A stretch of 64,000 nt of DNA from Candidatus Multivoradales bacterium (GTDB lineage: Bacteria > Acidobacteriota > Thermoanaerobaculia > Multivoradales > J023). This document shows positions 28,679-53,825 of this stretch, piece after piece. A model generated the notes under the pieces. That model made no database searches. It was not told the origin of the DNA and saw only the letters and a program-made list of their open reading frames with translations. The stretch spans positions 1,408,001-1,472,000 of the forward strand of contig CBDFLE010000005.1 of the NCBI GenBank assembly GCA_965248925.1. The letters are read 5' to 3'. Position 1 is the stretch's first letter, and each line of letters starts with the position of its first letter. The position numbers were made by a program, and so were the translations under genes.

Positions 28679-28770
28679 AGAGTCAAGTAATCTTCCTCAA
28701 AACTCGCGCCGCAAAATATTTTTCCTCTCGCGGTGCAAGATGATGGACCTTGCCCGCGTCTCTGGTGGGT

Positions 28771-30300
28771 ATGTTGGCACGAATATCTACAGCAACCCCC
28801 TGGGGAGTCGACGCCCGGCCGGTGCAAGTCGAGGTGGACGCCCACAACGGCCTGCCCCAAATGCAGATCGTCGGCCTCCCCGATGCCTCCGTACGCGAGA
28901 GCCGTGAACGCGTGCGATCGGCAATCAAGAATAGCGGCTTCGACCTGCCACCCAGAGCCGTGGTGGTCAACCTGGCTCCGGCCGATCTGCGCAAAGAGGG
29001 CAACCACCTCGATCTGGCGATCGCCCTCGCCTTACTCGCCGCTCTCGGCCAGGTGCCCGAAGAGGCTCTGGCCGGCCGCATGTTCTGCGGCGAGCTGGGC
29101 CTAGATGGCGGCGTGCGCCCAGTGCGCGGCGGCCTGGCTTTGGCCGCTTTAGCCACCCGGCAGCAGCTCCGCGAGTTGCTGCTGCCAGCGGCCAACGCCA
29201 GTGAGGCGGCAGCACTAGGCAGTGTACCGGTGATCCCGACCCGCAGTCTCCGCGAAGTGGTCGACCACCTCACCGGCCGGCAACCCCTACAGCCCGCTAC
29301 CGCCGACGATTTTGGCCAGCACTCCCTGCCCGGCTGCGCCCTCGACTTAGCTGAAGTGCGGGGGCAGCAGGCCGCCAAACGGGCGTTGGAAGTCGCTGCG
29401 GCCGGCGGGCATAATCTGCTTTTTATTGGCCCGCCTGGTTCCGGCAAGACCATGCTCGCCAGGCGCTTACCGGGATTGCTGCCGCCGCTGAGCCTCGAAG
29501 AGTCCATAGCGGTCACCAAGATCCACTCGCTGGTGGCCGAAGAACCCCCTTCACGGCTGGTCGAAGAACGACCCTTCCGCAGCCCCCATCCTGGCACCAG
29601 CACCGCCGGCCTGATCGGTGGCGGTTCCATTCCCCGTCCAGGTGAGGCCAGCCTGGCGCACGCTGGGGTGCTGTTTCTCGACGAGTTGCCCGAATTCCGT
29701 CGGGACAGCTTGGAGGCCCTGCGACAGCCGCTCGAAGAGGGTACCGTCACCGTGGTACGGGCACGAGCGCGGCTTTGCTTTCCGGCTCGCTTCGCTCTCC
29801 TAGCCGCGATGAATCCCTGCAAGTGCGGGCATTTGGGGGACGATCGGCATCACTGCAAATGCTCGCCACAGATGATCGAACGCTATCGCAGTCGGGTCTC
29901 AGGGCCGCTTCTCGACCGCATCGACATGCATGTCGAGGTGCCGGCGGTGAGCCTTGCCGAGTTGCGCAGCGAAGCCACCGAAGGGACTCGGGAAGTAGCG
30001 TGGAGAGTGCGCCAGGCGAGAGAGATCCAGCGCAGTAGATTCGGCTCCCAGACGGACGTGCCGGTCAATGCCTCCCTGGGGAGCGACGGCATCGAGCAGC
30101 ATTGCGTGCTAGCGCCCGATGCCCAGCGCTTGGTCGACACCGCCTTCGACAAGCTCAAGCTGTCGGCACGGGCACTCAGCCGCATCCTCAAGCTATCCCG
30201 CACCATCGCCGACCTCGACAGTTCGGCGGAGATTCGGGCAGCGCATGCCGCCGAGGCCATTCAATACCGCAGCCTGGACCAGCGATCGGAGCGAGGCTGA
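28771..30300 (+). CDS. comM: ComM/YifB Mg-chelatase-like AAA+ helicase
   Basis: IVGLPDASVRESRERV, GPPGSGKT, GEASLAHAGVLFLDE, SGPLLDRID; appears intact. Confidence 0.93.
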   Translation: MLARISTATPWGVDARPVQVEVDAHNGLPQMQIVGLPDASVRESRERVRSAIKNSGFDLPPRAVVVNLAPADLRKEGNHLDLAIALALLAALGQVPEEALAGRMFCGELGLDGGVRPVRGGLALAALATRQQLRELLLPAANASEAAALGSVPVIPTRSLREVVDHLTGRQPLQPATADDFGQHSLPGCALDLAEVRGQQAAKRALEVAAAGGHNLLFIGPPGSGKTMLARRLPGLLPPLSLEESIAVTKIHSLVAEEPPSRLVEERPFRSPHPGTSTAGLIGGGSIPRPGEASLAHAGVLFLDELPEFRRDSLEALRQPLEEGTVTVVRARARLCFPARFALLAAMNPCKCGHLGDDRHHCKCSPQMIERYRSRVSGPLLDRIDMHVEVPAVSLAELRSEATEGTREVAWRVRQAREIQRSRFGSQTDVPVNASLGSDGIEQHCVLAPDAQRLVDTAFDKLKLSARALSRILKLSRTIADLDSSAEIRAAHAAEAIQYRSLDQRSERG

Positions 30301-31265
30301 TGCCACGTTTACCACGCTACTTGCCGCGTCCCGGCTGCTTGGTCGAGATCACCCAGCGGACTCTGCAAGGGCGCTACCTCCTACGACCGAGCCGGCGTCT
30401 CAATCAGCTTCTAATCGGAATTCTTGCCAAAGCCCAGCAAGAAACCGAGCTCGCCGTCCATGCGATCGCCGTCCTCTCAAATCACTTCCACCTACTCGCT
30501 TCACCGGCCACCGTCGAACAGATTGCGCGATTTATGGGACACCTCAAGACCAACATAGCCAAAGAAATAGGTCGTCTCCACGACTGGCCCGGCTCGATGT
30601 TCGACCGGCGCTACACCATGATTCCGGTCAGCGACGAAGAGGAAGCTCAGATCAAGCGCCTCGAGTACCTCCTCTCTCAAGGCTGCAAAGAAGGGCTCGT
30701 GACGTCACCCCTCGAGTGGCCGGGAGCCCACTGCGCAGGAGCGCTCCTGACGGGCTATCCGCTGAGGGGAATCTGGATCGACCGCACTCGGCAATGGGCG
30801 GCGAGCCAGCGCGAGGCCGACACCGGGGAATCCGACTTCGTAACCGACGTCGAGCTAAAGCTCGACAACCTGCCATGTTGGAAGCATCTTGCGCTAGAAG
30901 CCCAGCAGCAACACATCTTGGAGCTCATCGAGAAGATCGAGAGAGATACTGCAAGACTCCATCAAGACCGAGGAACCGAGCCCCTCGGCGCATTCCTCGT
31001 CGGCCAGCAGCAGACACATCGACGCCCCGGCCAGCAACCGACAAACCCACCCCCCTTCTTTCACGTCTATCGGAAGAAAGTCCGGCACGCGATGCGCTTG
31101 GCCTTGGGCGAATTCCTCACTGCATACCGTACGGCCGCAGAGAAACTTCGAAGCCGTGGAGCACCTAGCGGATTTCCTGAAAACTCCTTCCCGCCAAGAC
31201 CAAAATTCGTCACTGCTGTCCCGTTAACTTCGCAGAAAAATAGGCTCAAACCTCCCTGGTCTTGA
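30300..31265 (+). CDS. HUH Y1 transposase, RAYT/TnpA-REP-like; C-terminal tail replaced by IS4 insertion
   Basis: ATG overlaps comM stop (TGATG); EITQRT, VLSNHFHLL (HUH), MFDRRY, RLEYLLSQGCKEGLV..EWPG (candidate catalytic Tyr). Original end FVDTNTPSDSS* lies beyond the IS at 32493-32523. Confidence 0.85.
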   Translation: MPRLPRYLPRPGCLVEITQRTLQGRYLLRPSRRLNQLLIGILAKAQQETELAVHAIAVLSNHFHLLASPATVEQIARFMGHLKTNIAKEIGRLHDWPGSMFDRRYTMIPVSDEEEAQIKRLEYLLSQGCKEGLVTSPLEWPGAHCAGALLTGYPLRGIWIDRTRQWAASQREADTGESDFVTDVELKLDNLPCWKHLALEAQQQHILELIEKIERDTARLHQDRGTEPLGAFLVGQQQTHRRPGQQPTNPPPFFHVYRKKVRHAMRLALGEFLTAYRTAAEKLRSRGAPSGFPENSFPPRPKFVTAVPLTSQKNRLKPPWS

Positions 31266-32483
31266 TAGAATCAGTCATCGCTAAACGGCTGAATCAAAGG
31301 GAGATCTGAGCCTTGGCACATCATAGCACCGTCTTCGCCCAGCTACTGCAACTGATTTCGAGACATGAATTCGAGGCCCTCGCAAAACGCCACCACGCCG
31401 GTCGCCAGTTCCGCACTGCGAGCCGCTGGTCGCAGCTGGTGGCTCTGATGATGGCCCAGCTGTCCGGGCGTTCTAGCTTGCGCGACATCGTTGACAATCT
31501 ACGAGCGCAGCGGCACAAGCTCTACCATCTCGGCTGCCGAGTCCTGTCGCGATCTAACTTGGCACGGATCAACGAAGAGAAGCCCTATCTCCTTTTTGAA
31601 GAGCTATTTGGGAGACTTCTGGGGCATGCTCAGGCAGTGGCGCCCAAGCATACGTTCCGGTTCAAGAACCGCTTGTTCTCGCTTGACGCCTCGGTGATAG
31701 ACCTCTGTCTGTCGATATTCCCATGGGCGAAGTTTCGTACGACCAAGGGAGCGATCAAGCTGCATGTGGGGTTGGATCACGGTGGCTACTTGCCTGCCTT
31801 CGTTGCGATCTCGGATGGAAAAACAGGTGACATCGCGGGCTGCAAGAGCCTGACGCTGCCACGAGGAAGCATCGTAGCTTGTGATCGTGGTTACAACAGC
31901 TACAGCTGGTTTCGTCAGCTGAGCGAGAAGGGTCTTTTCTTTGTGACCCGTCTGAAGCGCGGGGCCAAGTACCGCGTGACCGAACGTCGAAGAGTCAATC
32001 GTTCCAAGGGTTTGATGAGCGACCAAACGATCGAATGGACCGGTGTGAAGGCGTGTCGTGACTGCCCGATGCCTCTGCGGAGAGTAGGCTATCGCGACCC
32101 TGAGACCGGCAAGATCTACTATTTCTTGACGAACCTGTTCCGCCTGTCACCTCAGACCATTGCCGATATCTACCACGAACGTTGGCAAATTGAACTCTTC
32201 TTCAAGTGGATCAAGCAGAATCTGAAGATCAAGACTTTCGTCGGCACCAGCCGCAACGCCGTGCTGACTCAGCTTTGGATCGCCATGTGCGTCTACCTAT
32301 TGCTCGCTTTCATCAAGCACAAGCACCGTCTTTCCAGTAGTTTACGGGAGGCCTTGCGCCTCCTTCAATTGAACCTCTTTGAGCGCCGCGACCTCATGGC
32401 CCTCTTGAAACGAGAGCCGCCGCCGATCCCAGGACTAGACGAAAGACAACTGGTAATCGTCGGAAGTTAACGGGACAGCAGTG
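31211..32483 (+). mobile_element. IS4-family insertion sequence, complete
   Basis: 21-bp perfect terminal IRs CACTGCTGTCCCGTTAACTTC (31211-31231 / 32463-32483); 9-bp target duplication AAAATTCGT (31202-31210, 32484-32492). Confidence 0.95.
31313..32470 (+). CDS. IS4-family DDE transposase
   Basis: SLDASVIDL, IKLH, CDRGY, YHERWQIELFFKWIKQNLKIK. Confidence 0.95.
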   Translation: MAHHSTVFAQLLQLISRHEFEALAKRHHAGRQFRTASRWSQLVALMMAQLSGRSSLRDIVDNLRAQRHKLYHLGCRVLSRSNLARINEEKPYLLFEELFGRLLGHAQAVAPKHTFRFKNRLFSLDASVIDLCLSIFPWAKFRTTKGAIKLHVGLDHGGYLPAFVAISDGKTGDIAGCKSLTLPRGSIVACDRGYNSYSWFRQLSEKGLFFVTRLKRGAKYRVTERRRVNRSKGLMSDQTIEWTGVKACRDCPMPLRRVGYRDPETGKIYYFLTNLFRLSPQTIADIYHERWQIELFFKWIKQNLKIKTFVGTSRNAVLTQLWIAMCVYLLLAFIKHKHRLSSSLREALRLLQLNLFERRDLMALLKREPPPIPGLDERQLVIVGS

Positions 32484-32515
32484 AAAATTCGTTGACACCA
32501 ACACCCCTTCTGACT

Positions 32516-32542
32516 CTTCATAATGTGCCTGGCACCTATTTC
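32516..32542. repeat. REP-like palindromic repeat, copy 1
   Basis: CTTCATAATGTGCCTGGCACCTATTTC; overlaps the original RAYT stop codon. Confidence 0.85.
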
Positions 32543-35387
32543 TGCGTGCGCCGCGGGGCCCTTTCCGCGAGACATCTTGGAGATCGTATTGTAGGTCTCA
32601 TTCGCCAAGTTTGAGTGGTACGATTTGGATCGCTTGAGCTTTCCGCTGATCAGATCTCCGATTTTTCGATTGCCAAACCCACCGGGGCCTACGGGCATCA
32701 TGCCTATTTTGCAAACTCCGGCATCGACACAATCCATGAAGTTTCCGCTCTGTGGTAATCTAAAGGATTCCAGGATCAACGCCGTAAAACTTTTCTTTGT
32801 TCCCTCTGAGGAGGTCCCTGCCGTGACTTGTAAATCGCGATCTGAAGGAATGGATGTGGAATCCGTCGAACTCTCTTGTGAAAACTCACTGATCACATCG
32901 ATAGATGATGAAAAACAGAGCCCTAGCAAACAAGGGTCAATAATAAATGCAAATCCGTCAAGCGGTGTTGCCCCAGAAGGATCATTGAAGAGAAGGGGAC
33001 GATTGTTAACATAAGAAACACGATTCCACGAGCGGGATTGCGGGATGGGAGTACCGTCGGTAGCCGGATCTACACTCAAGAACCGCCCCACCACCGGACT
33101 GCAATGCCGAGCATGCATGTAGTCAAGCTCACTCTTCGCCCCCACGCCGTTCTTGTCTCGCTCATGCCCGGTAAACTTCAGCTGAAACTCATCCGAGCTA
33201 GCACTGGTTGCCTCCTGCCCAAACGGATAGTAACTGTGCTGCGCCACTTGGGTGCCATTCTTCGTCACCTGCCGTGGTGTACCGAGATGATCTAGATGAA
33301 AGCTGTAAGTCTCTTCGACACCACTGGCGTCCGGGTCTACCGAGGCTAGGAGCTGTCCACCCCGGTAGACGTAGTCCCGCTCCCACTCGAAGCTTTCGCC
33401 CCGCGGATGGGTGAAGACCCGCAGCACCTCGTTGCCGAGCCCGCGCAAGGTCCAGGTCTCGCTGGCCGGGCTGCTGACGCAGCTGCTGCCGGCGGCGCTG
33501 AAGCAGCTGAAGGTGACGATGCGCTCGTCGTCAGCGTTGTAGATGTACACGCTCGCCTGGTCGGTGTTGCTTTGCAGGTGCTTCATCATGTTGGCGGCGT
33601 CGTAGGTGTACTGGTAGATCTCCGAGCTACTGTAACGCACGCGGGTCAGGTTGCCGCCAGCGTCGTACACCGTGCCGCTGAGGCCGAGGCGGTTGGTGCT
33701 GCTGCTCGGGCTCATGGTCTGGCTGGCGCCGTGGGTGACCATCTGGGTAAGGTTGCCGAAGTTGTCATAGCTCGCGGTCTGTAGGCGGTCGTTGCTGCCG
33801 ACTTTTACCTCGCCGCTGACCAGGCGCTGGAATCGGTCATAGCGATATTGCAAGGAGCCGATGCGGTGGATATTTCCGGCTCCGTCGTAGTCGAAGGTGC
33901 CGGTGTCCCAGCCGGCGTTGGTAGAGATGCGCTCGGGCCGGGCGAGGCCGGAGGGATCGACCTGGCGGGTCTCGGTGATGCCGCTCTGGTGGCTGATCTG
34001 GGTCAGCATGCCGCCGCTCTGGTAGCTGAGGCTGGAGGCGAAACCGGGGACCGCGGTGAGGAAGCCCTTGTCGTAGGCGAAGCTCACCTGCCGCGGTGGG
34101 CTGACCTGATCGCAGCTGTCGTTGCTGTGCAGGCAGTCAGGATAGTCGAGGGTCGCGAGGTTGCCTTGCAGATCGAAGGTGAAGCCGGCCTGGAAGGCGT
34201 AGTGGCCGACGCCGAGCTGATAGCGAGTCTGGCGCTCGGACATCCGGCCGCCACGACCCGCGTAGACGAAGCTCTCGGAGACCCGGACATCGAGGAAGCC
34301 GGGATTGGCGTTCAGCGGATTCACCAGATCCACCCAATTGTGGCGGGTGGTCTGCACCAGCTTGCCGGCCCGCTTGTCGAGACCTACGTTCTGGCGGCCG
34401 TAGCGGAACTCCTTCAGCCGGCGTGGGTTGCCCCCGTTGTTCTCGTCGACGCGGATCAAGCGAGCCGCTGGATCATAGAAATAGTCGAGGTCAAATTCGG
34501 TGGAGCCACCGATGCGTTTGCTCAAAACGCTGCCACGAGCATCATAGGAATAGGTCGTGGCGCCGTTGCCCACTGGGCCGACTTCGGGATGGGTCTCGGA
34601 GGTCAGGAAGCTGCGACCGTCATAGTTGAAGAAGCGTTGCTGGCCACAGGTCGATCCAGTCCGATTCTGGCAAACGTGGGTGAGCCGCGAGCCGGCGTCG
34701 TAGGCGTAGCGAGTCAGCAAGCCGCCCGCGTTGCAGCTGCCATTCCAGGCCGCCGATCTGCCTTCACAAACCTCGAACAATCGGCCCTGGCCATCGGAGA
34801 TCTCGGTGTTGTAGGTGTCTTCTTGCACTCCGGAGGCGAGCATCACTTTGAACCGCCGCGTCTTGGTGCGTTCGCCCTCGTAGCTGAGGAATGTGGCCGG
34901 CTGGCTTGGTGGGGTGATCCTGCCGGGGCGGCCGAAGTTGTCGTACTGCTCGTACTTGGTGACGCGGCTGTCGGAAGTGGCGTTAAGGGTCCACACCGAT
35001 TCCGCGGTCTTCCAGGCCCGCGGGTTGAAGCTCATGTGGCGGTACCACCTCACCCCGCCGGGCAACTGTACCTGCTCTTTGACCCGGCGGCCGAGGCCGT
35101 CGAAAGTGTGCTGGCGGTAGGCCAGCAGGCCGGAGCCCGAGCAAGCGGCGGTGGTGACGCATTGCTCTTCGGTCAGTAGCGGCACCAGGTTGAAGTTGCT
35201 CTGGGTGGCCAGCCGGTAGGTGTAGCGGCGCACTGCTTCGCTCTCGGGAAACTCATGGGTCAATCGGCCCTGCCGGTCATAGAGGAAGTCGATCTTGACC
35301 CCGGCGCTGTCTCGGCTGCGTTTGACCAGGCCGGTGTTCTTGTCGAGATCGTAGTCGGCCAGTTTGAGCAGCACCTCGCTGGTGGCG
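32543..35387 (-). pseudogene. Rhs/YD-repeat polymorphic toxin fragment lacking N-terminus and toxin end
   Basis: YD repeats; core FHLDHLGTPRQ, YYPFG, KFTGHERD, GRFLSVDP, NDPSG; AT-richer C-terminal tip. Frame runs into the repeat at both ends; no clear RBS or immunity gene. Confidence 0.85.
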
Positions 35388-35532
35388 CCGCTTCATAAGG
35401 TGCCTGGCACCTATTTCCGTCGCACCTATTTCCGCTTCATAAGGTGCCTGGCACCTATTTCCGGCACCTATTTCCGTCGGCAAGCAGCTAAGCAAGCAGC
35501 CCGCTTCATAAGGTGCCTGGCACCTATTTCCG
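35388..35532. repeat. Cluster of three full and two half copies of the REP-like repeat
   Basis: CCGCTTCATAAGGTGCCTGGCACCTATTTCCG at 35388, 35432, 35501; half copies GCACCTATTTCCG at 35422 and 35464. Confidence 0.92.
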
Positions 35533-35702
35533 AGAAACGCACCCCCGCCAATCGTGGCCGCTGTTGAAGTAGTTGGCCTAGGCCGTTGTTGAGTTTCTCT
35601 CCCTGGCTTGACGTAGTACGGTATTCTCTCAAGTAACTAGTCTTAGATTCTTCGAATGCGCCGCCCGGAAGCCGCCGGCTGCCAAGTGTAGGGGGCAGGA
35701 GT

Positions 35703-36236
35703 ATGTCGTGCATCAGCTGGACGCGCCTACCGCGCCTGCCTAGGGCTGGTGTCATGGCTGCTTTATTGATCCTCGCCCAGGGTTCCGCAGCGGCGGCGGG
35801 GGAGAAGCAAATCTACGGCTGGGCGGAGCATGTGACGCTGCCCAAGGTGCGATTCGAGCTCACCGCCAAACTGGACACCGGCGCCGATCACTCTTCCCTG
35901 AACGCGATCGGAATTCGCCGGGTTCGGCGGGGAGACAAGCGCTATGTGCGCTTCTCGGTGGCCGACCCCAGCACCGGTGAGCTGGTGGAGCTGCGGCGGC
36001 CCTACCTTCGCCGGACGCGCATAAAGCGCCACCAAGGCAGTGCCGAGGGGCGCTATGTGGTGATGATGGAGGTCTGCCTCGGGGACCATCGGCGCGAGGT
36101 TGAGGTCAGTCTGGTCGATCGCAGTGAGTTCAACTACCCCTTGTTGCTGGGCCGCAGTGCTCTGGAAGGAATCGCCGTGGTGGACCCGGAGCTGACCTTT
36201 ACCACGCCACCGACCTGCGCTCCGGAGGAAGAGTGA
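35703..36236 (+). CDS. Retropepsin-like protease (DUF785 / putative ATP-dependent Zn protease family)
   Basis: GWAE, AKLDTGADHSSL, LVDRSEFNYPLLLGR. Confidence 0.85.
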   Translation: MSCISWTRLPRLPRAGVMAALLILAQGSAAAAGEKQIYGWAEHVTLPKVRFELTAKLDTGADHSSLNAIGIRRVRRGDKRYVRFSVADPSTGELVELRRPYLRRTRIKRHQGSAEGRYVVMMEVCLGDHRREVEVSLVDRSEFNYPLLLGRSALEGIAVVDPELTFTTPPTCAPEEE

Positions 36237-37759
36237 CCACTCGCCAGCTACTCCTGTGGGTGGGCGTGCTGAGCGCCGCCGGCCTTGGGATCTTCCTCTA
36301 CAAGTTGTTGGTTCTGGGCCTGCCTTTGTCTGCGAACTCGGAAACCGAGGTCTGGAACATACAGGCGCGAGTGAGCTTCCTGGCCTCCGGCGGGCCGGTG
36401 AAGGCCAGGCTGGAGATTCCCACCGGGATGCCTGGCTTCGGCATCTTGGACGAGCACTTCGTCAGCCGCGGCTACGGCCTGCGGACCGAGCTCGAGGGTG
36501 ACCGCCGCCAAGCACAGTGGGCGATCCGCAGTGCGAACGGACAGCAGAATCTCTACTACCGGGCTGCGATCTACCCGGATCCGGCGCGTTCCGAACTCGC
36601 CGCCGAGCCGCCACCGCCACCGGTGCCGGAGTTGGAGGAGCCCTTTCTCACCGCCTTGACCGCGCTGGTCACCGAGGTCCGCAGCCAATCCGCCGATGTC
36701 TCGACCTTCACCTCGGAAATGCTGGCCCGGACCCTCGACCCTTCGCCGAGCGAAGATGTCGATCTGCTGCTCGGAAGAGCCCAGACCCCGGGGGAGCGCG
36801 CGCAGGTCTTGGTCGAGCTGCTGGCGGGAGCGCGCATTCCAGCGCGGGTGGCCAATGGCCTGAGGCTCGAGGAGCGCCAGGCGCGGGCCGACTTCTTGCC
36901 CTGGCTCGAGGTCTACAATGGCGAGGAGTGGCTGTTCTTCGACCCGGCGAGCGGTGAGCAGCAGCGACCGGCCGACTTGCTGCTGTGGTGGCGTGGTGGC
37001 TCGGAAATGCTCGAGATCTCTGGTGGCCGGCGAGCCAACACGCAGGTCTCCGTGCAGCGCGACACGATCGGCACCATGGAAGTGGCCGAGCGCCGTGCCG
37101 AGCTGCTGGGTTCGCGGATGGTGGAGTTTTCGCTGCTCGGGCTGCCACTGCAGACCCAGACCGTGTACGGGGTAGTGCTGCTGATCCCGATCGGGGCTTT
37201 GCTCCTGGTGCTGCTGCGCAATGTGGTGGGCATCAAGACCTTCGGCACTTTCACCCCGGTGCTGGTGGCGCTGGCTTTCCGCGAGACCCGGCTACTCTGG
37301 GGCATTGTTCTGTTCTGCCTAGTGGTAACCCTGGGATTGGCCATCCGCTTCTATCTAGAGCGTTTACGGCTGCTGCTGGTGCCGCGACTGGCAGCGGTGC
37401 TGACGGTAGTGGTTCTGGTGATGGCCACGGTGAGTGTGCTTTCCAATCGGTTGGGTATGGAGCGCGGGCTGTCGGTGGCCCTCTTTCCACTGGTCATCCT
37501 GACCATGGCGATCGAGCGCATGTCAGTGGTGTGGGAAGAGCGCGGCGCCAGGGAGGCAATCGAGGAGGGACTTGGCAGCCTGTTGGTGGCTGCCCTTGCT
37601 TATCTGGCGATGAGCTTCTCCTTCCTCGAGCACCTGCTGTTCGTTTTTCCTGAGCTACTCTTGCTGGTGCTGGCAGCCATCCTGCTACTCGGCCGCTATC
37701 GCGGCTATCGGCTGCTCGAGCTGCGGCGCTTCCGCGCCCTGGCCAGGGAGAGCGCCTGA
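36233..37759 (+). CDS. Inactive transglutaminase fused to 7TM domain
   Basis: GIKTFGTFTPVL, LLLVPRLAAVL, LFPLVILTMAIER. Confidence 0.85.
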   Translation: MTTRQLLLWVGVLSAAGLGIFLYKLLVLGLPLSANSETEVWNIQARVSFLASGGPVKARLEIPTGMPGFGILDEHFVSRGYGLRTELEGDRRQAQWAIRSANGQQNLYYRAAIYPDPARSELAAEPPPPPVPELEEPFLTALTALVTEVRSQSADVSTFTSEMLARTLDPSPSEDVDLLLGRAQTPGERAQVLVELLAGARIPARVANGLRLEERQARADFLPWLEVYNGEEWLFFDPASGEQQRPADLLLWWRGGSEMLEISGGRRANTQVSVQRDTIGTMEVAERRAELLGSRMVEFSLLGLPLQTQTVYGVVLLIPIGALLLVLLRNVVGIKTFGTFTPVLVALAFRETRLLWGIVLFCLVVTLGLAIRFYLERLRLLLVPRLAAVLTVVVLVMATVSVLSNRLGMERGLSVALFPLVILTMAIERMSVVWEERGAREAIEEGLGSLLVAALAYLAMSFSFLEHLLFVFPELLLLVLAAILLLGRYRGYRLLELRRFRALARESA

Positions 37760-38712
37760 TGCTGGGATTGGCGCGCGCGCTTCGCGCCCGCGGGATCCTG
37801 GGCCTGAACAAGCGCAACGGCGACTACATCGCGCGCTACAACTCACGTCGACTCTATCCATTGGTCGACGACAAGCTGCTGACCAAGAGTTTGGCACTCG
37901 AGGCTGGCATGGCGGTACCCGAGCTCTATGGTGTGACCACCGCCCAACACGAGATCAGCCAACTGCCCAGCCTGTTGACCGGGCACGAGGACTTCGTGCT
38001 CAAGCCAGCTCGGGGTAGCGGTGGCAACGGAATCTTGGTCATCACCGGTACCCTCGAAGGCCGCTATCGCCGGCCAGGCGGCCAGTTGCTGAGGGAGGAA
38101 GAGCTCGGGCACCACGTCTCCGGTATCCTCTCCGGCCTGTACAGCCTGGGCGGGCAGCGGGACCGGGCGATGTTGGAATACCGGGTGCGTTTCGACCCCC
38201 TGTTCGAGCAGGTCACGTTCCAGGGTGTGCCCGACATCCGGGTGATCGTCTTCCTCGGCCATCCGGCCATGGCCATGGTGCGCCTGCCGACCCGCTACTC
38301 GGACGGCAAGGCCAATCTGCACCAAGGTGCGATCGGCGCTGGCATCGACCTGGCCACCGGCCGCACCCTCGCCGGCGTGCTCGGCAACGACGTGGTGCGC
38401 GCCCACCCCGATACTGGCCAGTCGATCCGCGGCCTCGAGATTCCCGGTTGGCAGACGATCCTCGAACTCGCGGCGCGCTGCTTCGAGATCACCGGTCTCG
38501 GCTACCTGGGAGTAGACATCGTCCTCGACGACGAGCGCGGCCCGCTGATCCTCGAGCTCAACGCCCGGCCCGGTCTCAACATTCAAATCGCCAACGGCCA
38601 GGGCCTGCGTAGCCGCCTGGAGCGGATCGCTGCCGAGACCGATCCCGACGCCCCCACAGGCACCCGCGTTGCCTTCTCCAGAGCGAGTTTCCGTCACCAG
38701 GGCGGGGCCTGA
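37759..38712 (+). CDS. Alpha-L-glutamate ligase-like ATP-grasp protein (RimK-related)
   Basis: GILGLNKRN, VDDKLLTK, KPARGSGGNGI, GKANLHQGA, LELNARPGLNIQIAN. Confidence 0.9.
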   Translation: MLGLARALRARGILGLNKRNGDYIARYNSRRLYPLVDDKLLTKSLALEAGMAVPELYGVTTAQHEISQLPSLLTGHEDFVLKPARGSGGNGILVITGTLEGRYRRPGGQLLREEELGHHVSGILSGLYSLGGQRDRAMLEYRVRFDPLFEQVTFQGVPDIRVIVFLGHPAMAMVRLPTRYSDGKANLHQGAIGAGIDLATGRTLAGVLGNDVVRAHPDTGQSIRGLEIPGWQTILELAARCFEITGLGYLGVDIVLDDERGPLILELNARPGLNIQIANGQGLRSRLERIAAETDPDAPTGTRVAFSRASFRHQGGA

Positions 38713-38821
38713 ACAGCCAAGGGGGGCCTTTGACTACAAGCGAAAAATGGCCAGTCCGAGACAAGCGCGTTTGATGAGTCGCGAAGGGCACCTGCCGAGC
38801 CCAGCTGCTGTCGGTCCAGTA

Positions 38822-38835
38822 GCACCTATTTCTGC
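38822..38835. repeat. Half copy of the REP-like repeat
   Basis: GCACCTATTTCTGC, identical to 32532-32545; intergenic. Confidence 0.65.
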
Positions 38836-38943
38836 AGCCAGGCGAGCTTCAAAGCGCCGGCTTCGAGCTTCTGAGCGAGCACCCCTTGCCGCAGCTCGAA
38901 GACAACTATATGCTGCGTTTCGAGCGTCGCTGAGCAGGGGTTA

Positions 38944-41139
38944 TTGATGGGCGAACCGAAGAGTAGCGTGGCAAGCGAGGTGGGAACGCCAGCGATGGCT
39001 TCACACCGGTCGGCCTTCACCGTGGTGTTTTGGGCCAGTTTCCTGGGGTTGTTCCTCGAGCTGGCCTTGATCCGCTGGGTGTCGAGCGAGATCCGCGTCT
39101 TCGCTTACTGCAAGAACCTGGTGTTGGTCGCTTGCTTTCTGGGATTTGGCGCTGGCTGCTTCTTGGCGCGGCGCAAGATAGAGCTGCTGCGGTCGATGTT
39201 CGTCTTGCTGCTGCTCGTTCTGGTAGTGCGTCTGCCGTGGCAATCGCTGCAAGAGTTCGGCCCCCGTCGGGTCAGCGACATCTTGGCCGAGTTCTCCGGT
39301 TTCATGATCTTTCACCAGCAGGTCGAAGGGCGGTGGACCGAACTCGGTCAGCTGCTCTTCGCGATCGGCTGGACCAGCGTGATGTTCTTCGCCGCGGCCT
39401 ACATCATGGTGCCCTTCGGTCAGCTCACCGCCGCCGCCATCAGCAAATTCGACAGCCCGGTGCGGGCCTACTCGATCAACGTCGCCGGCAGCCTGCTCGG
39501 CATCCTCACCTTTAGTTTGATGAGCAGCATCGGCACGCCGCCACTGATCTGGTTCGTACCGATCGTTTTGGGTTGTTTGATCTTTGTCGACAGCTCGGCG
39601 GGCGCCGATTCGCCCTCGACGGCGGCGCCGCGCTGGCAAGCCCAGGCGCTCATCGGCCTGGCCCTGGCGATGACCCTGGTGATGCTGCCCGACAATCGGC
39701 CCAGCTTCAGAACCTTTTGGTCGGGCTATCAGAAGCTGTCGGTATTCGAAGGCCGTGAACCGGGAGTCGCCTGGCATATTTTCGTCAACAACACCGGCTT
39801 TCAGAACTTGCGCCCACAGCCCACCTTGGCAGAGAGCGGCGACATCTCGATCGATCGTTTCTCCATGCCTTATGCCTTCCGTCGACCCGCCGGCAAGGTC
39901 CTGATCGTCGGCGCCGGCAGCGGCAACGACGCCGCCATAGCGCTCAGGGCCGGGGCCACCTCGGTGACCGCGGTCGAGATCGACCGCAAGATCTACGAGC
40001 TCGGAGCAGAGCTCCATCCGCAAGCTCCGTACTCGGACCCGCGAGTCGAAGTGGTGATTGACGACGCCCGCAACTACTTGAAAAGGAGCCATGAGCTCTT
40101 CGATGTCATCGTCTTCAGCCACCTTGACTCGCATGCCCTGCTGTCCTCTTACACCAATGTCCGATTGGACAACTACATCTACACCGTCGAGGCGCTCCGC
40201 GAGGCGCGCAGCCGCCTGGCGCCCGGCGGTATCGTCTATATCTCCTTTTTCGCCCAAGAAGCCTTCGTCGGCCATCGCCTGGCGACCAATCTTGAGGCCG
40301 CTTTCGGACACCCACCGGTCTACCTGCAGAGCGCCCGGCGTCAGGGAGATCGCGAAGTGCTGCACAATGTTTATCTGCTGACCGGCGAAGCCGAGGTTCA
40401 AGAGCAGCTCCAGGCGGCGGCCGCGGGGTGGAGTGACTTCGCGGCGGTACCGGCAACCCATGAGGTAGATCCCTCCACTGATGCGTGGCCTTTCTTGCCG
40501 CTCGAAAAGCGCTCTATCCCGCCTTTTATATTGCTGATCTCGATCGTCATCCTGGCCCTTTCGCTGATCTTCGTGCTCGCCGCGCGCCCCTCCGGCGCCG
40601 CGTTCGATGGCCGAGTCTTCTGGCTTGGCGCCGCCTTCATGTTGCTCGAAGTCCACAACGTCTCACGCCTGGCGCTGGTCTTCGGCACCACCTGGAAGGT
40701 CAACGCCTGGGTGGTCGGAGTGATCTTAGGCCTGATTCTGCTGGCCAACGCCACCTATCTGGCACTGAGCCGCCGCGGTCGCCGGCCTGGCCGGTGGGCG
40801 GTAGGCGGGCTATTCGCGACCCTGGCGGCGGCCTGGTTGGTGCCCTTGGAGACCTTCATCGGAGCGGACCTGGTCTGGGGGCCCGCCGCCGCCACCCTGC
40901 TGCTGTCGGCGCCGATCTATTTCGCTGGCCTGGTGTTTGCCGAGGCCTTCGCGGAGAGTGCCGCGCCGGGCTTCGCCCTGGGCTGGAACATCCTCGGAGC
41001 CGTGACCGGCGGGATGCTCGAAAACCTCTCCTATGTCGCTGGAATTCCAGCCCTGGTGCCGCTCGCGGCGCTGCTCTACCTGGCGGCGATCGCCTGGCCG
41101 CGCTCGCCGGTCTCGGCGCCCATCCGACAACCGGCTTGA
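38944..41139 (+). CDS. Membrane protein with spermidine-synthase-like SAM-binding domain
   Basis: LFLELALIRW, AYSINVAGSLLG, VLIVGAGSGND, AVEID, DDARNY, TDAWPF. Confidence 0.85.
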   Translation: MMGEPKSSVASEVGTPAMASHRSAFTVVFWASFLGLFLELALIRWVSSEIRVFAYCKNLVLVACFLGFGAGCFLARRKIELLRSMFVLLLLVLVVRLPWQSLQEFGPRRVSDILAEFSGFMIFHQQVEGRWTELGQLLFAIGWTSVMFFAAAYIMVPFGQLTAAAISKFDSPVRAYSINVAGSLLGILTFSLMSSIGTPPLIWFVPIVLGCLIFVDSSAGADSPSTAAPRWQAQALIGLALAMTLVMLPDNRPSFRTFWSGYQKLSVFEGREPGVAWHIFVNNTGFQNLRPQPTLAESGDISIDRFSMPYAFRRPAGKVLIVGAGSGNDAAIALRAGATSVTAVEIDRKIYELGAELHPQAPYSDPRVEVVIDDARNYLKRSHELFDVIVFSHLDSHALLSSYTNVRLDNYIYTVEALREARSRLAPGGIVYISFFAQEAFVGHRLATNLEAAFGHPPVYLQSARRQGDREVLHNVYLLTGEAEVQEQLQAAAAGWSDFAAVPATHEVDPSTDAWPFLPLEKRSIPPFILLISIVILALSLIFVLAARPSGAAFDGRVFWLGAAFMLLEVHNVSRLALVFGTTWKVNAWVVGVILGLILLANATYLALSRRGRRPGRWAVGGLFATLAAAWLVPLETFIGADLVWGPAAATLLLSAPIYFAGLVFAEAFAESAAPGFALGWNILGAVTGGMLENLSYVAGIPALVPLAALLYLAAIAWPRSPVSAPIRQPA

Positions 41140-41680
41140 GCACCTCGGTACCGACGCGTCGTGTTCCTACCGCTGCCAAGACAGGCCAGCTTCCCGGCCG
41201 TCGCCGGTTGCGAAGACCCGCCGCAAGTACCCCGCACGGACCAGCCCTCAAGACCCCTCCGGCGGCCAATTGTAAGAACGCCTTCCGCGGGATAGGATCT
41301 CTTCACAGAGTTAGTTTTCTGGTTCATCCGGGAAATGAGGAGGTGCTGGTCTCGCCGGACTGGTCATTCCAGTCCAGGCAGGCCCGCTGAGGTTTGGCGA
41401 GCCCCGCCGCTCGCTGAGTGTGGCGCCATCGGCTGACCGCCTCAAGGGTACGCTTCGCCGGCTCCTTCCCTCCTGCCGCCCCTGACCCGGCCAGCCGCTG
41501 TCGCTCCTGTAGGCCTGTAGGCGACGGGGAAAAGGCGATCTCGACGCAATCAAGCTGGTCTGGGCACCGAATCGAGCTGTTCTGTGAGCAGAGGACTAGG
41601 GGGGACTTGAGAGTTGTCGCCATGTCGATCATCCTGGTCGTATCTCCGCGTCATATGTGCCTTCTATGAGTCGGACGGTT

Positions 41681-41904
41681 CAAGTCAAGCAGAATGGTGG
41701 ATTCTGGTCGATGATTTCTCGCTGGTGACTGGGTCTGATCGGACGAACTTCTATTCGCACTCTTTGAGGCCTGATCGGAGGCCGGTGCATTACGAGCTTT
41801 GCGTCTAGAGACCCAAAGAGGGCGCTCCCATCTGGCACACGGAGTCCAAGCTCCAAGACAAACGTGGCCGTTCTAAGTCTTTTTTTTCTGTGAGTTTGTG
41901 GTGT
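41681..41904 (-). ncRNA. Candidate bridge RNA / seekRNA of the IS1111-type element
   Basis: Non-coding region downstream of the transposase with segments matching target+core (GTGCCAG) and donor junction (ATAGAAG, TCATC) in the expected order. Boundaries approximate. Confidence 0.65.
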
Positions 41905-42613
41905 TCAAACAGTCTGTGGAAAAGCGCGGAAGATGTCGCCAGAGATCCAGATCCGGTGGAGCACAACGGAGATCTTTCAGCCGAACCATCAGCTCATCAT
42001 CCTCGGAGAGCGACTCCAGCTGAGCACTCAGCTCCGCGATCTGCTGGTTCAGCTGAACGATCATCTCCAGCAGAGGATCCAGCACCAGGCGAAGCTCGTC
42101 CTCGACCTTCAGGCGGACGAAGCGGTCAACGAAGCGCCGGGTCTCACAACGCGACATCCGGTAGCCATGGGAGCGCAGCGTCCCTCGGATCGAGTTGATC
42201 AGTCTGGTGCGATTTCTCACCAGCTCGGTGCGAACCCGCAGGCGCGTCCGCAGAAGCTGCGCTGCTTTGCTACGCTGATACACGCTACCCAGCAACACAC
42301 CGTCGAAGCGACTCAGCCGAGCCAAGATCTCCGCATCGATCGTGTCGCTCTTCAGCGTGCTCTCAGCGATCAAACGCACCCACCGCGGGTTGACCACGAT
42401 GACCTCATGGCCCCAGCTCTTCAAGAGCCGATACAACCAGGGAGTCACAGTGCCACACTCCATCACTAGCCGAGAGCGCTCCCGCTTGGCGAAGAATCGC
42501 CGCAGCGAAGTCTCCGTGGTTGCGACTTGCCGGCGCTCCAGGACACGACCTCGGGAGGAAAGAACGTAGATCTCGCTGTACTTTGTGTGAGCGTCGATGC
42601 CAACAGGGTCCAT
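41905..42613 (-). pseudogene. IS110 transposase, internally deleted and frameshifted
   Basis: DEDD RuvC part (VGIDAH, VMECG, VNP, KSDTIDAEILA). After LMVRLK a different frame gives the family C-terminus KISVVLHRIWISGDIFRAFPQTV*; the Tnp20 region between is missing. Confidence 0.85.
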
Positions 42614-42914
42614 GGTCGGTTTCCCTTCGGGCACCACTGCGCCCTGGGGGGTTTCTCCCATGCAGGATGTCACTGATAGGAGACCGGCCGACTCATCTCA
42701 TCTGGCACCTATTTCTGGCAAGAGAGAACCCCGGAAATGCAGACAGCTATCTAGCTCACCAACTCTACAACCGCGATCTCGAACAAAGAGCGCTAAGGGG
42801 AGATCTAGCCCTTGACGGGCTACCCGCTAATGTGAATCAACTCTTTGGGCAAATCCCCATACTCAGCAGCCAAATGCTCCTGTAAGATCACGGCTTCTGA
42901 GAAGAGACGACGCT

Positions 42915-43523
42915 GTGAACCAAGACTCGGACATAACGGATCTGCTGCATGCCTGGCGGGATGGCGGCCCAGAGGGCCTCGATCAGCTGATGCCCCAGAT
43001 CATGGATGAGCTACGGCGGCTGGCCCGCGGCTACCTGGCGAGCGAAAGGCCCGATCACACCCTCCAACCCACCGCTCTGATCAACGAACTCTACCTGCGC
43101 TTGGCGGGGAGCCAACTGCGGGGCTTCGCCGATCGCCATCACTTCTTCGCTTTCGCCGCCAGCTTGCTGCGCCGAATTCTGGTCGATCACGGACGTGCCC
43201 GCCGCAGCCTCAAACGAGGGGGAAGGACCGAGCGGGTACCTCTCGATATGGCAGCGGACCAAGCGGCCAGCGCAGGTCTCGACCTGGACCTCGTGTTGGC
43301 GGTCGACCAAGCCCTGGCCAAGCTGGTGGACCTCAACCCACGGCAGGCGAAGATTGTCGAATTGCGCTACTTCGGGGGCCTGGGACTGCCGGAGATCGCC
43401 AGTCTTCTCGACTTGTCGCAATCCTCGGTGGAGAGAAGCTGGCGGGCCGCCAAACATTGGCTAGCCCACCAGATGACCAGCTCCCCAGCTTCAGCCCAAG
43501 CGCACGATCTACCGCTCAGGTAG
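42915..43523 (+). CDS. ECF sigma factor (kinase-associated, TIGR02999-like)
   Basis: DITDLLHAWRDG, HTLQPTALINELYLRL, RRILVDH, VELRYFGGL. Confidence 0.9.
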   Translation: MNQDSDITDLLHAWRDGGPEGLDQLMPQIMDELRRLARGYLASERPDHTLQPTALINELYLRLAGSQLRGFADRHHFFAFAASLLRRILVDHGRARRSLKRGGRTERVPLDMAADQAASAGLDLDLVLAVDQALAKLVDLNPRQAKIVELRYFGGLGLPEIASLLDLSQSSVERSWRAAKHWLAHQMTSSPASAQAHDLPLR

Positions 43524-43526
43524 GTT

Positions 43527-43868
43527 CTAGAACAGACACATCAGTCCAAAGCCGTCACAGTACACGACTTCACCCGGAATGCTGTAGCAGTCATAGTCAC
43601 CCTGGCAGGTTATGGTGTATCCGTTTGGCCGCCAAGGAGTAGCCGGGCAAGTCGTCGAGGCGGAGCAGCTCCCTCCTCCTCCCCATCGAGTGTCGGTTTC
43701 CTCACCTTTATCGGCACGCTCTGAGGCTGCGCCAACGGTTGAAGATTCGCTAGTCGAACCCACGGCTTTTTCCGCGTCCTGCGCCGGGGTTTCGTTGGAC
43801 TCGGCCGCCCAGGCGGCTCCGAAGCACAGACAAGTAATCGCTAGGCAAACAATGAAGATCTTTCGCAT
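43527..43868 (-). CDS. Small secreted protein with six-Cys C-terminal domain
   Basis: AGGA RBS; signal peptide ending AWA; acidic linker; CSASTTC...ITCQGDYDC...VYCDGFGLMC. Confidence 0.75.
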   Translation of the reverse strand: MRKIFIVCLAITCLCFGAAWAAESNETPAQDAEKAVGSTSESSTVGAASERADKGEETDTRWGGGGSCSASTTCPATPWRPNGYTITCQGDYDCYSIPGEVVYCDGFGLMCLF

Positions 43869-43978
43869 GACACTGCATCCTTTCCTTGAAGGGCCGGCTG
43901 CTGCCAGCCCTGTGGATGGGCATGGGATGCCCGGTAATTGGCTCTACCTGTGCCAGCGGAAAAGGAGGATCAAACCCT

Positions 43979-51806: not shown

Positions 51807-52856
51807 ATGCCTAGCGCGCCACCGCCGCCGATCGATATCGAAGCCGTCCTCCACCTCCCGCCCTCCCTACCCACTGGCAAGTCGCTCGGCCGTTCGCGCC
51901 AAGGCCGGGAGATCTTCGGCTACCACTTCGGCCACGGGCCACGGCACGTCAGCCTGATCGCCGGCTGCCATGCCGACGAGCCGGTGGGGCCAGCAACCCT
52001 CGACCGGCTGGTCGCCCATCTCGCCGCGCTGCCCGCCGACCATCCGGCCCTGGCCGACTACTCCTGGTACCTGGTGCCGCACGTCAACCCGGACGGCGAA
52101 GCCCGCAATGCTGCTTGGAGCAACGCTGGCGACGGCCTCGACGGAGTCTACGACCTCGCCACCTACCTGCGCCAGGTAGTGCGTGAGGCACCGGGCGACG
52201 ATGTCGAGTTTGGCTTCCCCCACACCCCGGACGATCAGGATGCGCGGCCGGAGAACCTGGCGCTGGCCCGCTTTCTGGCTCCCGCCGCCCCTTTCGTGCT
52301 GCACGCTTCGCTGCACGGCATGGCATTCGCCGCCGGGCCCTGGTTTCTGCTCGAGCATTCCTGGGCAGCGCGCAGCGCGGCCATGCGCCACCGCCTGCGA
52401 CAGCAGGTCAAGGAACTGGGCTACGTCACCCACGACATCGACCGCGGTGGCGAGAAGGGCTTTCACCGCATCGATGTCGGTTTCACCTCCCGCCCCGATT
52501 CGGTCGCCATGCGCGCTCACTTCGAAAACCTCGGCGACTCCCGCACCGCTGCCCTGTTCCGTCCCAGCTCGATGGAGTATGTGCGCAGCCTCGGAGGCGA
52601 TCCGCTGACCTTGGTCTCCGAAATGCCTCTCTTCATCCTGCCGGCACGGCATTTCGCTGGCCGCGATCCAATTCGCCCCGCCGCCGTGCAGCAGCTGCTG
52701 CAGTGTGCGGCGGCGAATGACCTGGACGGCCTGCATCGCCACGCCACCGCGGCCGGCTTGCGGGCGATGCCGCTGCTCGACCAGAGTCGCTTGCAACTCG
52801 CCTTCCTCGCCGAAGGTCTGGCGGCGGTAGCGAGTGCGCACTTTGAATGCGCCTGA
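51807..52856 (+). CDS. M14-family zinc carboxypeptidase-like protein
   Basis: LGRSRQGR, AGCHADEP, PHVNPDG, ASLHGM. Confidence 0.8.
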   Translation: MPSAPPPPIDIEAVLHLPPSLPTGKSLGRSRQGREIFGYHFGHGPRHVSLIAGCHADEPVGPATLDRLVAHLAALPADHPALADYSWYLVPHVNPDGEARNAAWSNAGDGLDGVYDLATYLRQVVREAPGDDVEFGFPHTPDDQDARPENLALARFLAPAAPFVLHASLHGMAFAAGPWFLLEHSWAARSAAMRHRLRQQVKELGYVTHDIDRGGEKGFHRIDVGFTSRPDSVAMRAHFENLGDSRTAALFRPSSMEYVRSLGGDPLTLVSEMPLFILPARHFAGRDPIRPAAVQQLLQCAAANDLDGLHRHATAAGLRAMPLLDQSRLQLAFLAEGLAAVASAHFECA

Positions 52857-53791: not shown

Positions 53792-53825
53792 GCCGCGGAC
53801 CCGTGCCATCCACCGTCCCTCCACC

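Follow-up and report, generated by a model that had tools for sequence, protein, structure and literature searches.

What relationship links a short palindromic repeat to the gene of a Y1 HUH enzyme that follows comM, and did the two together assemble the gene blocks lying downstream? The question is posed by 64 kb of DNA from a Candidatus Multivoradales bacterium (G000:C5:1408001-1472000; the assembly, G000, comprises 7.98 Mb in 6 contigs at 62% GC), the whole of which is the window analyzed here and supplies the coordinates used below. An earlier note had read its central part as an integron-like array, headed by an enzyme resembling REP-associated tyrosine transposases (RAYTs; REP, repetitive extragenic palindrome) and grown by capture of segments through the repeats. 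Our answer, which we hold to be probable, is a different one: the RAYT-like Y1 enzyme encoded after comM has the repeat as its cognate, REP-like element, and the two form a REPtron-like system, not a cassette array. The 12-kb stretch in question is a conserved comM-Y1 pair combined with the remnant of a convergent Rhs toxin locus, ordinary operons, and two insertion sequence (IS) insertions.

Four full repeat units of the form CATAA[T/G]GTGCCTGGCACCTATTTC lie on the plus strand of the window, at 32519-32542, 35394-35417, 35438-35461, and 35507-35530. The first (CATAATGTGCCTGGCACCTATTTC) overlaps the TAA stop codon of the Y1 gene (32521-32523) and is the weaker palindrome, with TGTGCC in place of GGTGCC. 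The other three form an array (35389-35532, plus strand) together with two right halves (GCACCTATTTC) at 35422 and 35464. Further right halves are found on the same strand at 38822 and 42705. The one at 38822 stands alone and, with its tail (GCACCTATTTCTGCAGC, 38822-38838), is a 17-mer that recurs identically in loci A and D of the genome, described below; the one at 42705 belongs to a split copy, whose left half (CATATGTGCC, short by one A, 41652-41661, plus strand) is parted from its right half (TGGCACCTATTTC, 42703-42715, plus strand) by a 1041-bp IS. The 15-mer palindrome with up to two mismatches gave 8 strand-matches at 4 places in the window (0.19 expected), and the 11-mer has 8 exact matches there, all within 32532-42715; allowing one mismatch adds two, at 601 and 57492 (0.54 expected). 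No repeat copy was found in the flanking 30 kb on either side, and the four repeat sites share a single orientation. The earlier note was thus correct about every place it had named, about the common strand and the overlap with the Y1 stop, and about the repeat-free flanks.

The Y1 gene begins at 30300, where its ATG overlaps by one base the TGA of comM (28750-30300, plus strand; a Mg-chelatase-like AAA+ protein with Pfam Mg_chelatase, ChlI, and Mg_chelatase_C). Codons 1-304 occupy 30300-31210 (plus strand; Pfam Y1_Tnp, E 6e-7), an IS4-family IS (31211-32483) breaks the gene at codon 304, and the final codons with the stop follow at 32493-32523 (plus strand), as continuity with intact copies indicates. 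One intact copy elsewhere in the genome (G000:C5:709130-710071) encodes 313 amino acids (aa), and the two intact copies that exist could act in trans. The protein passes the cut-off of Pfam Y1_Tnp (30.7 bits against 23) and stays under that of NCBIfam REP_Tyr_transpos (NF047646; 45.2 bits against 80). An alignment of 20 family members shows H64 and Y123 invariant and H62 in at least 90%, the HUH motif reading H62-F-H64, and a conserved C-terminal region that reaches about residue 299. The tyrosine motif is YLLSQG (YLLSQGCKEGLV) and not Y---NP, which the accessible part of PMC6006769 gives as the class-2 Tyr signature of RAYTs.

The family profile matches TnpA of ISDra2 (E 3.5e-5, with the HUH and YxxxQ motifs aligned) and TnpAREP (E 0.024). 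For the AlphaFold model (mean pLDDT 85), the top Foldseek match is 4er8_A, TnpAREP bound to a REP hairpin (E 4e-6, TM 0.70 on the target), and IS200/IS605 transposases come next. Motifs and model together support the view, already taken in the earlier note, that this is a real Y1 HUH protein with a predicted RAYT-like fold. The family counts 356 proteins at E <=1e-10, named in the sources only as "transposase" or "RayT". It is present in 26 of the 30 relatives searched, all of them other genera (nearest about 70% DNA identity), with up to 51 matches in one genome (G011). Within G000, 21 tblastn hits correspond to about 17 loci (merged by eye), comprising 5 near-identical copies or fragments and about 12 paralog loci. 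All 14 PF01797 hits in this genome are of the long form, so that there is no other Y1 candidate in it.

Several lines of evidence connect this enzyme with the repeat. The 36-nt junction of Y1 end and repeat unit occurs at 5 places in G000, and in all 5 the Y1 stop lies inside the unit. Two Y1 paralogs (50-51% identity) have arrays of ...ATGTTTGGCACC plus tail about 260 nt past their stops, with right-half reiteration as in the window, and one of the two also has two TATTTC-type right halves upstream. Window-type Y1 genes of G000 have repeats on the 3' side only. Around a Y1 homologue in the relative G018 (51% identity), GTGCC[T/A]GGCAC units lie at 100-165 nt on the upstream and at 137 nt on the downstream side, some as inverted pairs, in a locus with 13 units in 16 kb. 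The 17-mer core occurs 61 times in G000, 1-4 times in each of 6 of the 30 relatives, and in none of the other 24. A scan for the 18-mer over one genome per species returned 64 stretches, mostly single, where about 35 would be expected by chance (a rough estimate); single hits were ignored and only genomes with multiple copies were used. These were a Planctomycetota metagenome-assembled genome (MAG), a Deltaproteobacteria MAG, and Bacillus caseinilyticus, and in all three the core flanks RAYT-like genes, often as inverted doublets, the Planctomycetota units having perfect 12-bp arms. The RAYT-like genes of the three genomes encode the Y---NP motif and score 64-78 bits with NF047646, under its cut-off.

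This flanking of RAYT-like genes in other genomes is the strongest sequence evidence for the repeat as the REP-type partner of a Y1 enzyme. The repeat is very probably the cognate element of the window Y1: palindromes akin to it lie around Y1 or RAYT-like genes of four other genomes and beside two paralogs in G000. If true, a core ATAAGGTGCC-T-GGCACC kept beside RAYT-like genes in several phyla would be an unusually conserved enzyme-site pair, and one that suits biochemistry. The core GTGCC[T/A]GGCAC was not found printed as a bacterial repeat in the literature searched, nor in the accessible supplements of PMC6006769. A metagenome scan with the 24-mer found one short contig, of unrelated context. 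As a separate observation, ATAAGGTGCC-T-GGCACC(TTAT) is multi-copy and often arranged in inverted doublets in L070, L080, and L110 (Planctomycetota MAG), and likewise in L092, L121, and L136 (Bacillus caseinilyticus) and in L115 and L128 (Deltaproteobacteria MAG), a spread over three other phyla that is unusually wide for a REP core.

The repeat is not confined to the window. In G000, the exact 11-mer occurs 24 times (about 2 expected), the 24-mer with up to 5 mismatches 61 times (0 for the reversed control), and the core GTGCC[T/A]GGCAC 70 times (3-47 for six control palindromes). The family totals about 60-80 units at 31 merged sites, 22 on the plus and 9 on the minus strand, most of them far from any Y1 gene. 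No site of the 31 is of mixed orientation, and neighboring sites up to 15 kb apart agree in orientation in 12 of 12 pairs, two of which are copies of one tandem duplication. The family is thus dispersed in both orientations, and its local coherence is real. The ORF surroundings of all sites, crudely called, were uninformative in so GC-rich a genome. The earlier note had held that genome-wide scatter in random orientation, together with relatives keeping the blocks in one order with or without the repeat, would tell against its proposal; about half of this is borne out.

The unit consensus is [C/G]ATAA-K-GTGCC-T-GGCACC followed by a 6-nt pyrimidine-rich tail. Across the 61 family members, the 5' flank [C/G]ATAA on the plus strand is conserved, whereas the tail varies from array to array (TATTTC, TTTTCC, TTTTGC, TCCTCT, ACTTCA, TCTTCT, and TCTGTA). 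The minus-strand "ATAG" foot, which the earlier note had likened to the guide of known REPs, therefore holds for the tail subfamily of the window and not for the family. Arrays combine full units with reiterated left or right halves, and the TATTTC subfamily is common to four distant loci and two singletons. Two other readings of the units were tried and rejected. A replication-strand bias, as from single-stranded DNA insertion on the lagging template, does not fit sites that lie on both strands in every GC-skew domain, and a sigma-54 promoter reading of TGGCAC...TGC does not fit a GG-to-GC spacing that is, by eye, 8 or 11 nt in most subfamilies, not 10.

The locus shares with the REP/RAYT systems of Escherichia coli (TnpAREP, PDB 4ER8) and Pseudomonas (REP doublets forming hairpins, REPINs) the Y1 HUH motif and catalytic tyrosine, the best structural match, short extragenic palindromes both beside the gene and dispersed in the genome, and a core found on both gene sides in G018 and three other genomes, partly as inverted doublets. 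Most likely, therefore, it is a REP/RAYT-like system of unusual form, seated in a decayed Rhs locus beside comM and overlaid by IS4 and IS1111-type insertions. Several features weigh against this explanation. The enzyme, at 313 aa, carries a conserved extra C-terminal domain of about 170 aa, scores below the NCBIfam RAYT cut-off, and has YLLSQG where Y---NP would be expected. RAYT genes are as a rule single-copy and vertically inherited; here the gene is multi-copy in G000, with paralogs, the repeats lie only 3' of it there, and most of the 31 sites are distant from Y1 genes. Known REPs number hundreds, combine a 5' tetranucleotide foot with an imperfect hairpin, and are mostly inverted pairs; here 61-79 units stand in tandem in one orientation, with reiterated halves, 0 of 31 sites mixed, and no inverted REPIN doublets in G000. 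The 5' flank is [C/G]ATAA rather than the GTAG or CGTC of the REP classes treated, with the TnpAY1 classes, in the accessible parts of PMC3733652 and PMC6006769. The hairpin is short: units of 24-27 nt have a stem of 6-7 bp, and a single unit folds as DNA at -5.4 kcal/mol, the one on the Y1 stop at only -2.4 kcal/mol. Breakpoints at repeat edges, described below, could stem from ordinary illegitimate recombination. Finally, Y1 follows comM patchily (3 of 26 relatives' loci), at 36-51% identity, and may have been inserted beside comM repeatedly. The TnpAY1 classes described in the accessible part of PMC6006769 include a class 3 found in Planctomycetes, as well as subclasses that lack REPs and have large C-terminal domains.

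If the repeat is indeed a REP-like partner of the enzyme, Y1 would bind the small hairpin (AGGTGC-CTG-GCACCT) and its A-rich 5' flank on single-stranded DNA, and would cut and rejoin DNA near it. Such cutting and rejoining could seed nearby units in the same orientation and reiterate half-units. The resulting arrays would be fragile, with deletions and duplications ending at their edges, and an IS1111-type RNA-guided IS would take the repeat center as its insertion site. The hairpin-guided single-stranded DNA chemistry supposed here is that of IS200/IS605 elements (IS608 and ISDra2 TnpA), with which the enzyme shares the catalytic fold and its best sequence-profile match, ISDra2 TnpA. Unlike in those elements, there is no unit with left-end and right-end hairpins and no tnpB, and the near-identical Y1 copies share a 483-bp piece of comM.

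That piece recurs in Rhs loci of the genome, which are also relevant to the DNA next to the window Y1. The Rhs fragment of the window (32544-35388, minus strand; Pfam RHS_repeat, NCBIfam Rhs_assc_core) is truncated at both ends exactly at repeat edges, and its open reading frame (ORF; 35374-32435) continues across the repeat and enters the IS. A 1675-aa Rhs gene in locus A matches the fragment internally at 96% identity; by comparison with that gene, 2.1 kb at the start, 85 nt (28 codons) at the end, and the immunity gene are missing here. The two deletion endpoints each adjoin a repeat edge, and the intact paralog is not repeat-bounded at one end. The fragment resembles Rhs orphan modules in that it is truncated at the 5' end, retains RHS repeats, a core end, and a variable C-terminus, and has full-length paralogs elsewhere. 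Such modules are followed by a cognate immunity gene, whereas the fragment is without that gene and the last 28 codons, and in G000 a Y1 gene with a repeat forms the distal flank of the variable region.

Loci A (C5:687-716 kb) and C (C6:3613-3645 kb) consist of tandem Rhs operons, each with an XRE regulator, a Big_9 protein, Rhs, and a small downstream gene. Each operon is followed by a convergent module of the last 483 bp of comM (29818-30300 in the window), Y1, and the repeat, 98-100% identical to the window. As the comM piece is carried along and these near-identical copies sit within 13-kb tandem units, the Y1 copies derive from segmental duplication, not transposition; most simply, the comM piece would be the novel joint of a duplication begun in a window-type locus. 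A HUH enzyme gene that moves together with a piece of its upstream neighbor recalls IS91/ISCR elements, which have Y2 enzymes with oriIS and terIS, but a tandem duplication, with the junction as its novel joint, accounts equally well for what is found here. Both loci contain further insertions. An IS21-like sequence with IstB and rve-type transposase ORFs (L009 12182-16722, G000:C5:696179-700722; also L011 1246-4147) splits one comM'-Y1 copy in locus A as an insertion of about 4.5 kb with a 7-bp flank overlap, and homologous sequence adjoins a truncated comM' fragment in locus C. Within locus C, a gene for a primase-like protein (1012 aa; CHC2 zinc finger and Toprim) and a phage-integrase gene (L011 12280-16391, G000:C6:3624280-3628391) lie beside a 5'-truncated Rhs copy and are probably an integrated element.

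A second junction of interest is found in locus D (G000:C6:1195567-1207382, L013), where an M16 peptidase gene has its final 695 bp in duplicate (95.5% identity). Between the two copies lie about 10.4 kb with three repeat arrays, a fragment of an extracytoplasmic function (ECF) sigma factor gene, and a kinase-TPR gene. The fragment copy begins right at an array, and its breakpoint is GGTGGCC, the reverse complement of which (GGCCACC) resembles the right repeat half. In the three relatives that have it, the gene downstream in locus D is never on the contig of the M16 gene, which is uninformative. Together with the Rhs fragment, locus D supports the part of the earlier note that saw the repeats as junction sites: some coincide with rearrangement breakpoints and their orientation is coherent, even though the capture array itself is not supported. 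We also checked public contigs of 4 runs from one sample for joined forms, and no reliable joined or excised form was present among them. All 4 runs show a joint of 32544 to 35499, but one of its sides is just 26 letters long, short of the reliability mark of 30, and nothing is concluded from it. Difference-free contigs cover 32544-33101, and the Rhs fragment is thus present; the remaining joints trace to paralogs or IS copies.

The Y1 genes of G000 are associated with Rhs beyond these loci. Of about 17 Y1 loci, 7 have an Rhs region no more than 10 kb away (5 of 15 when loci A, B, and C are counted once), a distance that takes in 10.5% of the genome, and in all seven the Y1 gene and the Rhs 3' end converge. 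An ancestral Rhs-Y1 segment that was duplicated as a whole could be the cause. In G011 there are at least 4 convergent Y1-Rhs pairs, one divergent, and one same-strand; no pair is among the matches listed in G016, G009, and G022, and G026 has one, on the same strand. The literature searched yielded no description of a convergent Y1-Rhs arrangement or of a comM-Y1 pair. Several Y1 subfamilies take this position, 0.9-7.7 kb downstream of Rhs and convergent with it (G000:C6:1750506, 3520444, 4014798, and 4208580, and loci A, B, and C), as do Y1 genes on G011 contigs C10, C23, C8, and C21. With Y1 convergent downstream of Rhs, the Rhs core lies on one side of the variable toxin/immunity region and the Y1 gene on the other.

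The alternative that survives best takes the repeats as passive or as serving the host, either as a protein-binding site or as an RNA hairpin, expanded by replication slippage and unequal crossing-over, with a Y1 gene that was domesticated for another role, perhaps together with ComM, and whose place beside them is a matter of history. We consider it unlikely. It does not account for a core found around Y1 or RAYT-like genes of four other genomes from different phyla, or for a TATTTC subfamily shared by four distant loci and two singletons, even though the separate 6-nt tail of each array looks like local homogenization and not like dispersal from a master copy, and slippage does yield half-unit reiteration. 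The palindrome is short enough for a dimer-binding site and the Y1 start overlaps the comM stop, both of which suit a host function; a terminator role, on the other hand, was rejected, as a scan does not select the units (10 sites against 9.6 in shuffles), and Rfam gave no match at E <=0.1 across 29000-45000.

Two further alternatives start from the junctions, which canonical REP biology does not fully cover: it does not explain the shared orientation of neighbors (12 of 12), the half-unit reiteration, or the gene fragments (Rhs and M16 peptidase) that end exactly at repeat edges. On account of these three features we leave a small chance to repeat-directed joining of segments, in which long-form Y1 and same-orientation repeats would be a joining system for chromosomal DNA and the Y1-repeat module a fixed distal anchor of the variable Rhs toxin/immunity region. 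Cuts at or near the repeat center would open the neighboring DNA to duplication, deletion, or insertion. Possible traces of such events are the comM' piece that accompanies Y1, the M16 gene end duplicated around 10.4 kb, and the Rhs piece trimmed at both repeat edges; the anchor rests on the convergence of Y1 genes and Rhs 3' ends, seen in 7 of about 17 loci here and in at least 4 in G011. Repeats as places of cutting and rejoining are compatible with the junction sequences. To our knowledge, movement of REP elements in vivo has never been shown; the one-orientation units, half reiteration, and exact fragment ends of this lineage would be readable footprints of cutting and joining. Both the comM-Y1 pair, which is translationally coupled, and the recurrent convergence of Y1 with Rhs hint at ties between single-stranded DNA processing, transformation, and toxin-gene turnover.

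The other alternative makes an IS the active agent. Judged by its sequence, the IS that splits the repeat belongs to the IS1111 group of the IS110 family and targets the repeat center. It is a defective element (41662-42702, minus strand; ORF 42673-41873, 266 aa) that sits exactly between GTGCC and TGGCACC, with subterminal inverted repeats ATGAGTCGG[A/C]CGG, a match to Pfam DEDD_Tnp_IS110 (PF01548; E 2.8e-22), and a score of 119.8 bits with NCBIfam transpos_IS110, under the cut-off of 140. All three right ends of such elements in G000 abut TGGCACC, on two tail subfamilies, and the left repeat half is kept only at the window copy. In its DEDD transposase, subterminal inverted repeats, and fixed point inside a repetitive palindrome, the element resembles the REP-targeting ISPpu9 and IS621, although the window copy, 1041 bp long with a 266-aa ORF, has lost internal sequence. 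Insertion of IS110-family elements into REPs is on record, for ISPpu9 in the accessible part of 10.1101/2025.01.17.633520 and likewise in that of PMC11187229. The repeats could then be no more than a safe target for an RNA-guided recombinase, and the rearrangements and half-sites by-products of insertion and adjacent deletion, as expected where one copy has no left half at its other end. We find this rather improbable: three IS remnants, all defective, face 31 repeat sites, loci A, C, and D contain no such IS, the arrays beside Y1 paralogs and beside RAYT-like genes of other phyla are left unexplained, and the IS requires a target family already in place.

There remains the integron-like capture array headed by Y1. 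Integrons have an IntI tyrosine recombinase, an attI site, and a Pc promoter at their head, and attC sites of 57-141 bp around ORFs that are mostly single, promoterless, and uniformly oriented. The likeness is one of layout, with same-orientation imperfect palindromes between blocks, beside a gene for a DNA-cutting enzyme. Here the heading gene encodes a Y1 HUH enzyme, attI/Pc is lacking, no Phage_integrase domain occurs among the ORFs scanned (about 22.6-56.3 kb of the window), and no attC-like structure was found in the window zone; the analogy fails on every defining feature tested. Although the single orientation of the four window sites and the agreement of genome-wide pairs, the repeat edges on both sides of the Rhs fragment, the 695-bp duplicates around three arrays in locus D, and a comM zone that may have grown all speak for it, a capture array is very unlikely, given that no second genome copy of any block was found in G000, that the Rhs piece is a doubly truncated deletion remnant and no discrete unit, that the blocks are multi-gene, with their own intergenic DNA and mixed strands (a three-gene operon, a gene for 731 aa preceded by a 230-bp leader, and a fragment of a gene on the minus strand), that their composition is not foreign except across the IS end and the Rhs C-terminus (51% GC), and that about 25 other repeat places have no heading Y1 gene. 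Cassette-like repeat patterns can thus arise from REP families together with Rhs locus decay.

The blocks themselves, which the earlier note had called unrelated, do have repeats at their borders. The operon (35703-38712, plus strand; Pfam) encodes a Zn_protease, an inactive-transglutaminase/seven-transmembrane protein, and an ATP-grasp ligase; the gene after it (38944-41139, plus strand) encodes the 731-aa protein, which has a spermine-synthase-like methyltransferase fold and Pfam/NCBIfam matches that are weak and below named-enzyme cut-offs. The operon is kept as a unit in G006, G011, and G022 at 47-65% aa identity, and no homologue of other window genes adjoins it there save one spermine-synthase-like gene: in G022 it is next to a homologue (34% identity) of the 731-aa protein. 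Since these homologues adjoin in G022, the operon and the following gene are not unrelated, which also counts against capture. A whole-genome scan for the 17-mer core, made with no separate scan of the three operon loci for the repeat, found none in G006 and G022 and two on another contig of G011.

Among 26 comM loci of relatives, Y1 directly follows comM in three, G011 (L036), G005 (L037), and G019 (L053), one of which is in another family; in two of the 26, the sequence downstream is too short to judge. In G011, comM-Y1 is also followed by a convergent Rhs gene. The adjacency reflects either a functional pair of long standing or a site that insertions prefer. In G010, G008, and G007, the neighbor of comM is a homologue of the M14-like gene found at 51807-52856 of the window, and the 21.5 kb between comM and this gene may, on this comparison, be a variable zone.

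Three further features of the window complete the picture. The IS4-family IS within Y1 (31211-32483, plus strand; transposase ORF 31313-32470) has the terminal inverted repeat CACTGCTGTCCCGTTAAC and a 9-bp target duplication, AAAATTCGT, at 31202-31210 and 32484-32492. It scores 287.6 bits with NCBIfam transpos_IS4_1, above the cut-off, matches Pfam DUF4372 and DDE_Tnp_1, and has 11 further full copies and 1 split copy elsewhere in G000. A 330-bp segment at 41320-41646 encodes a 102-aa minus-strand ORF without a Pfam match and recurs in 4 paralogous copies of about 77% identity. In all copies, identity reaches 98% over the 45 bp preceding the ORF start, suggestive of a conserved regulatory leader. 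Just past the variable zone, 52958-55370 contains a RecA-like (ImuA-type) ORF and an ORF for an impB/mucB/samB-family (IMS) polymerase-like protein.

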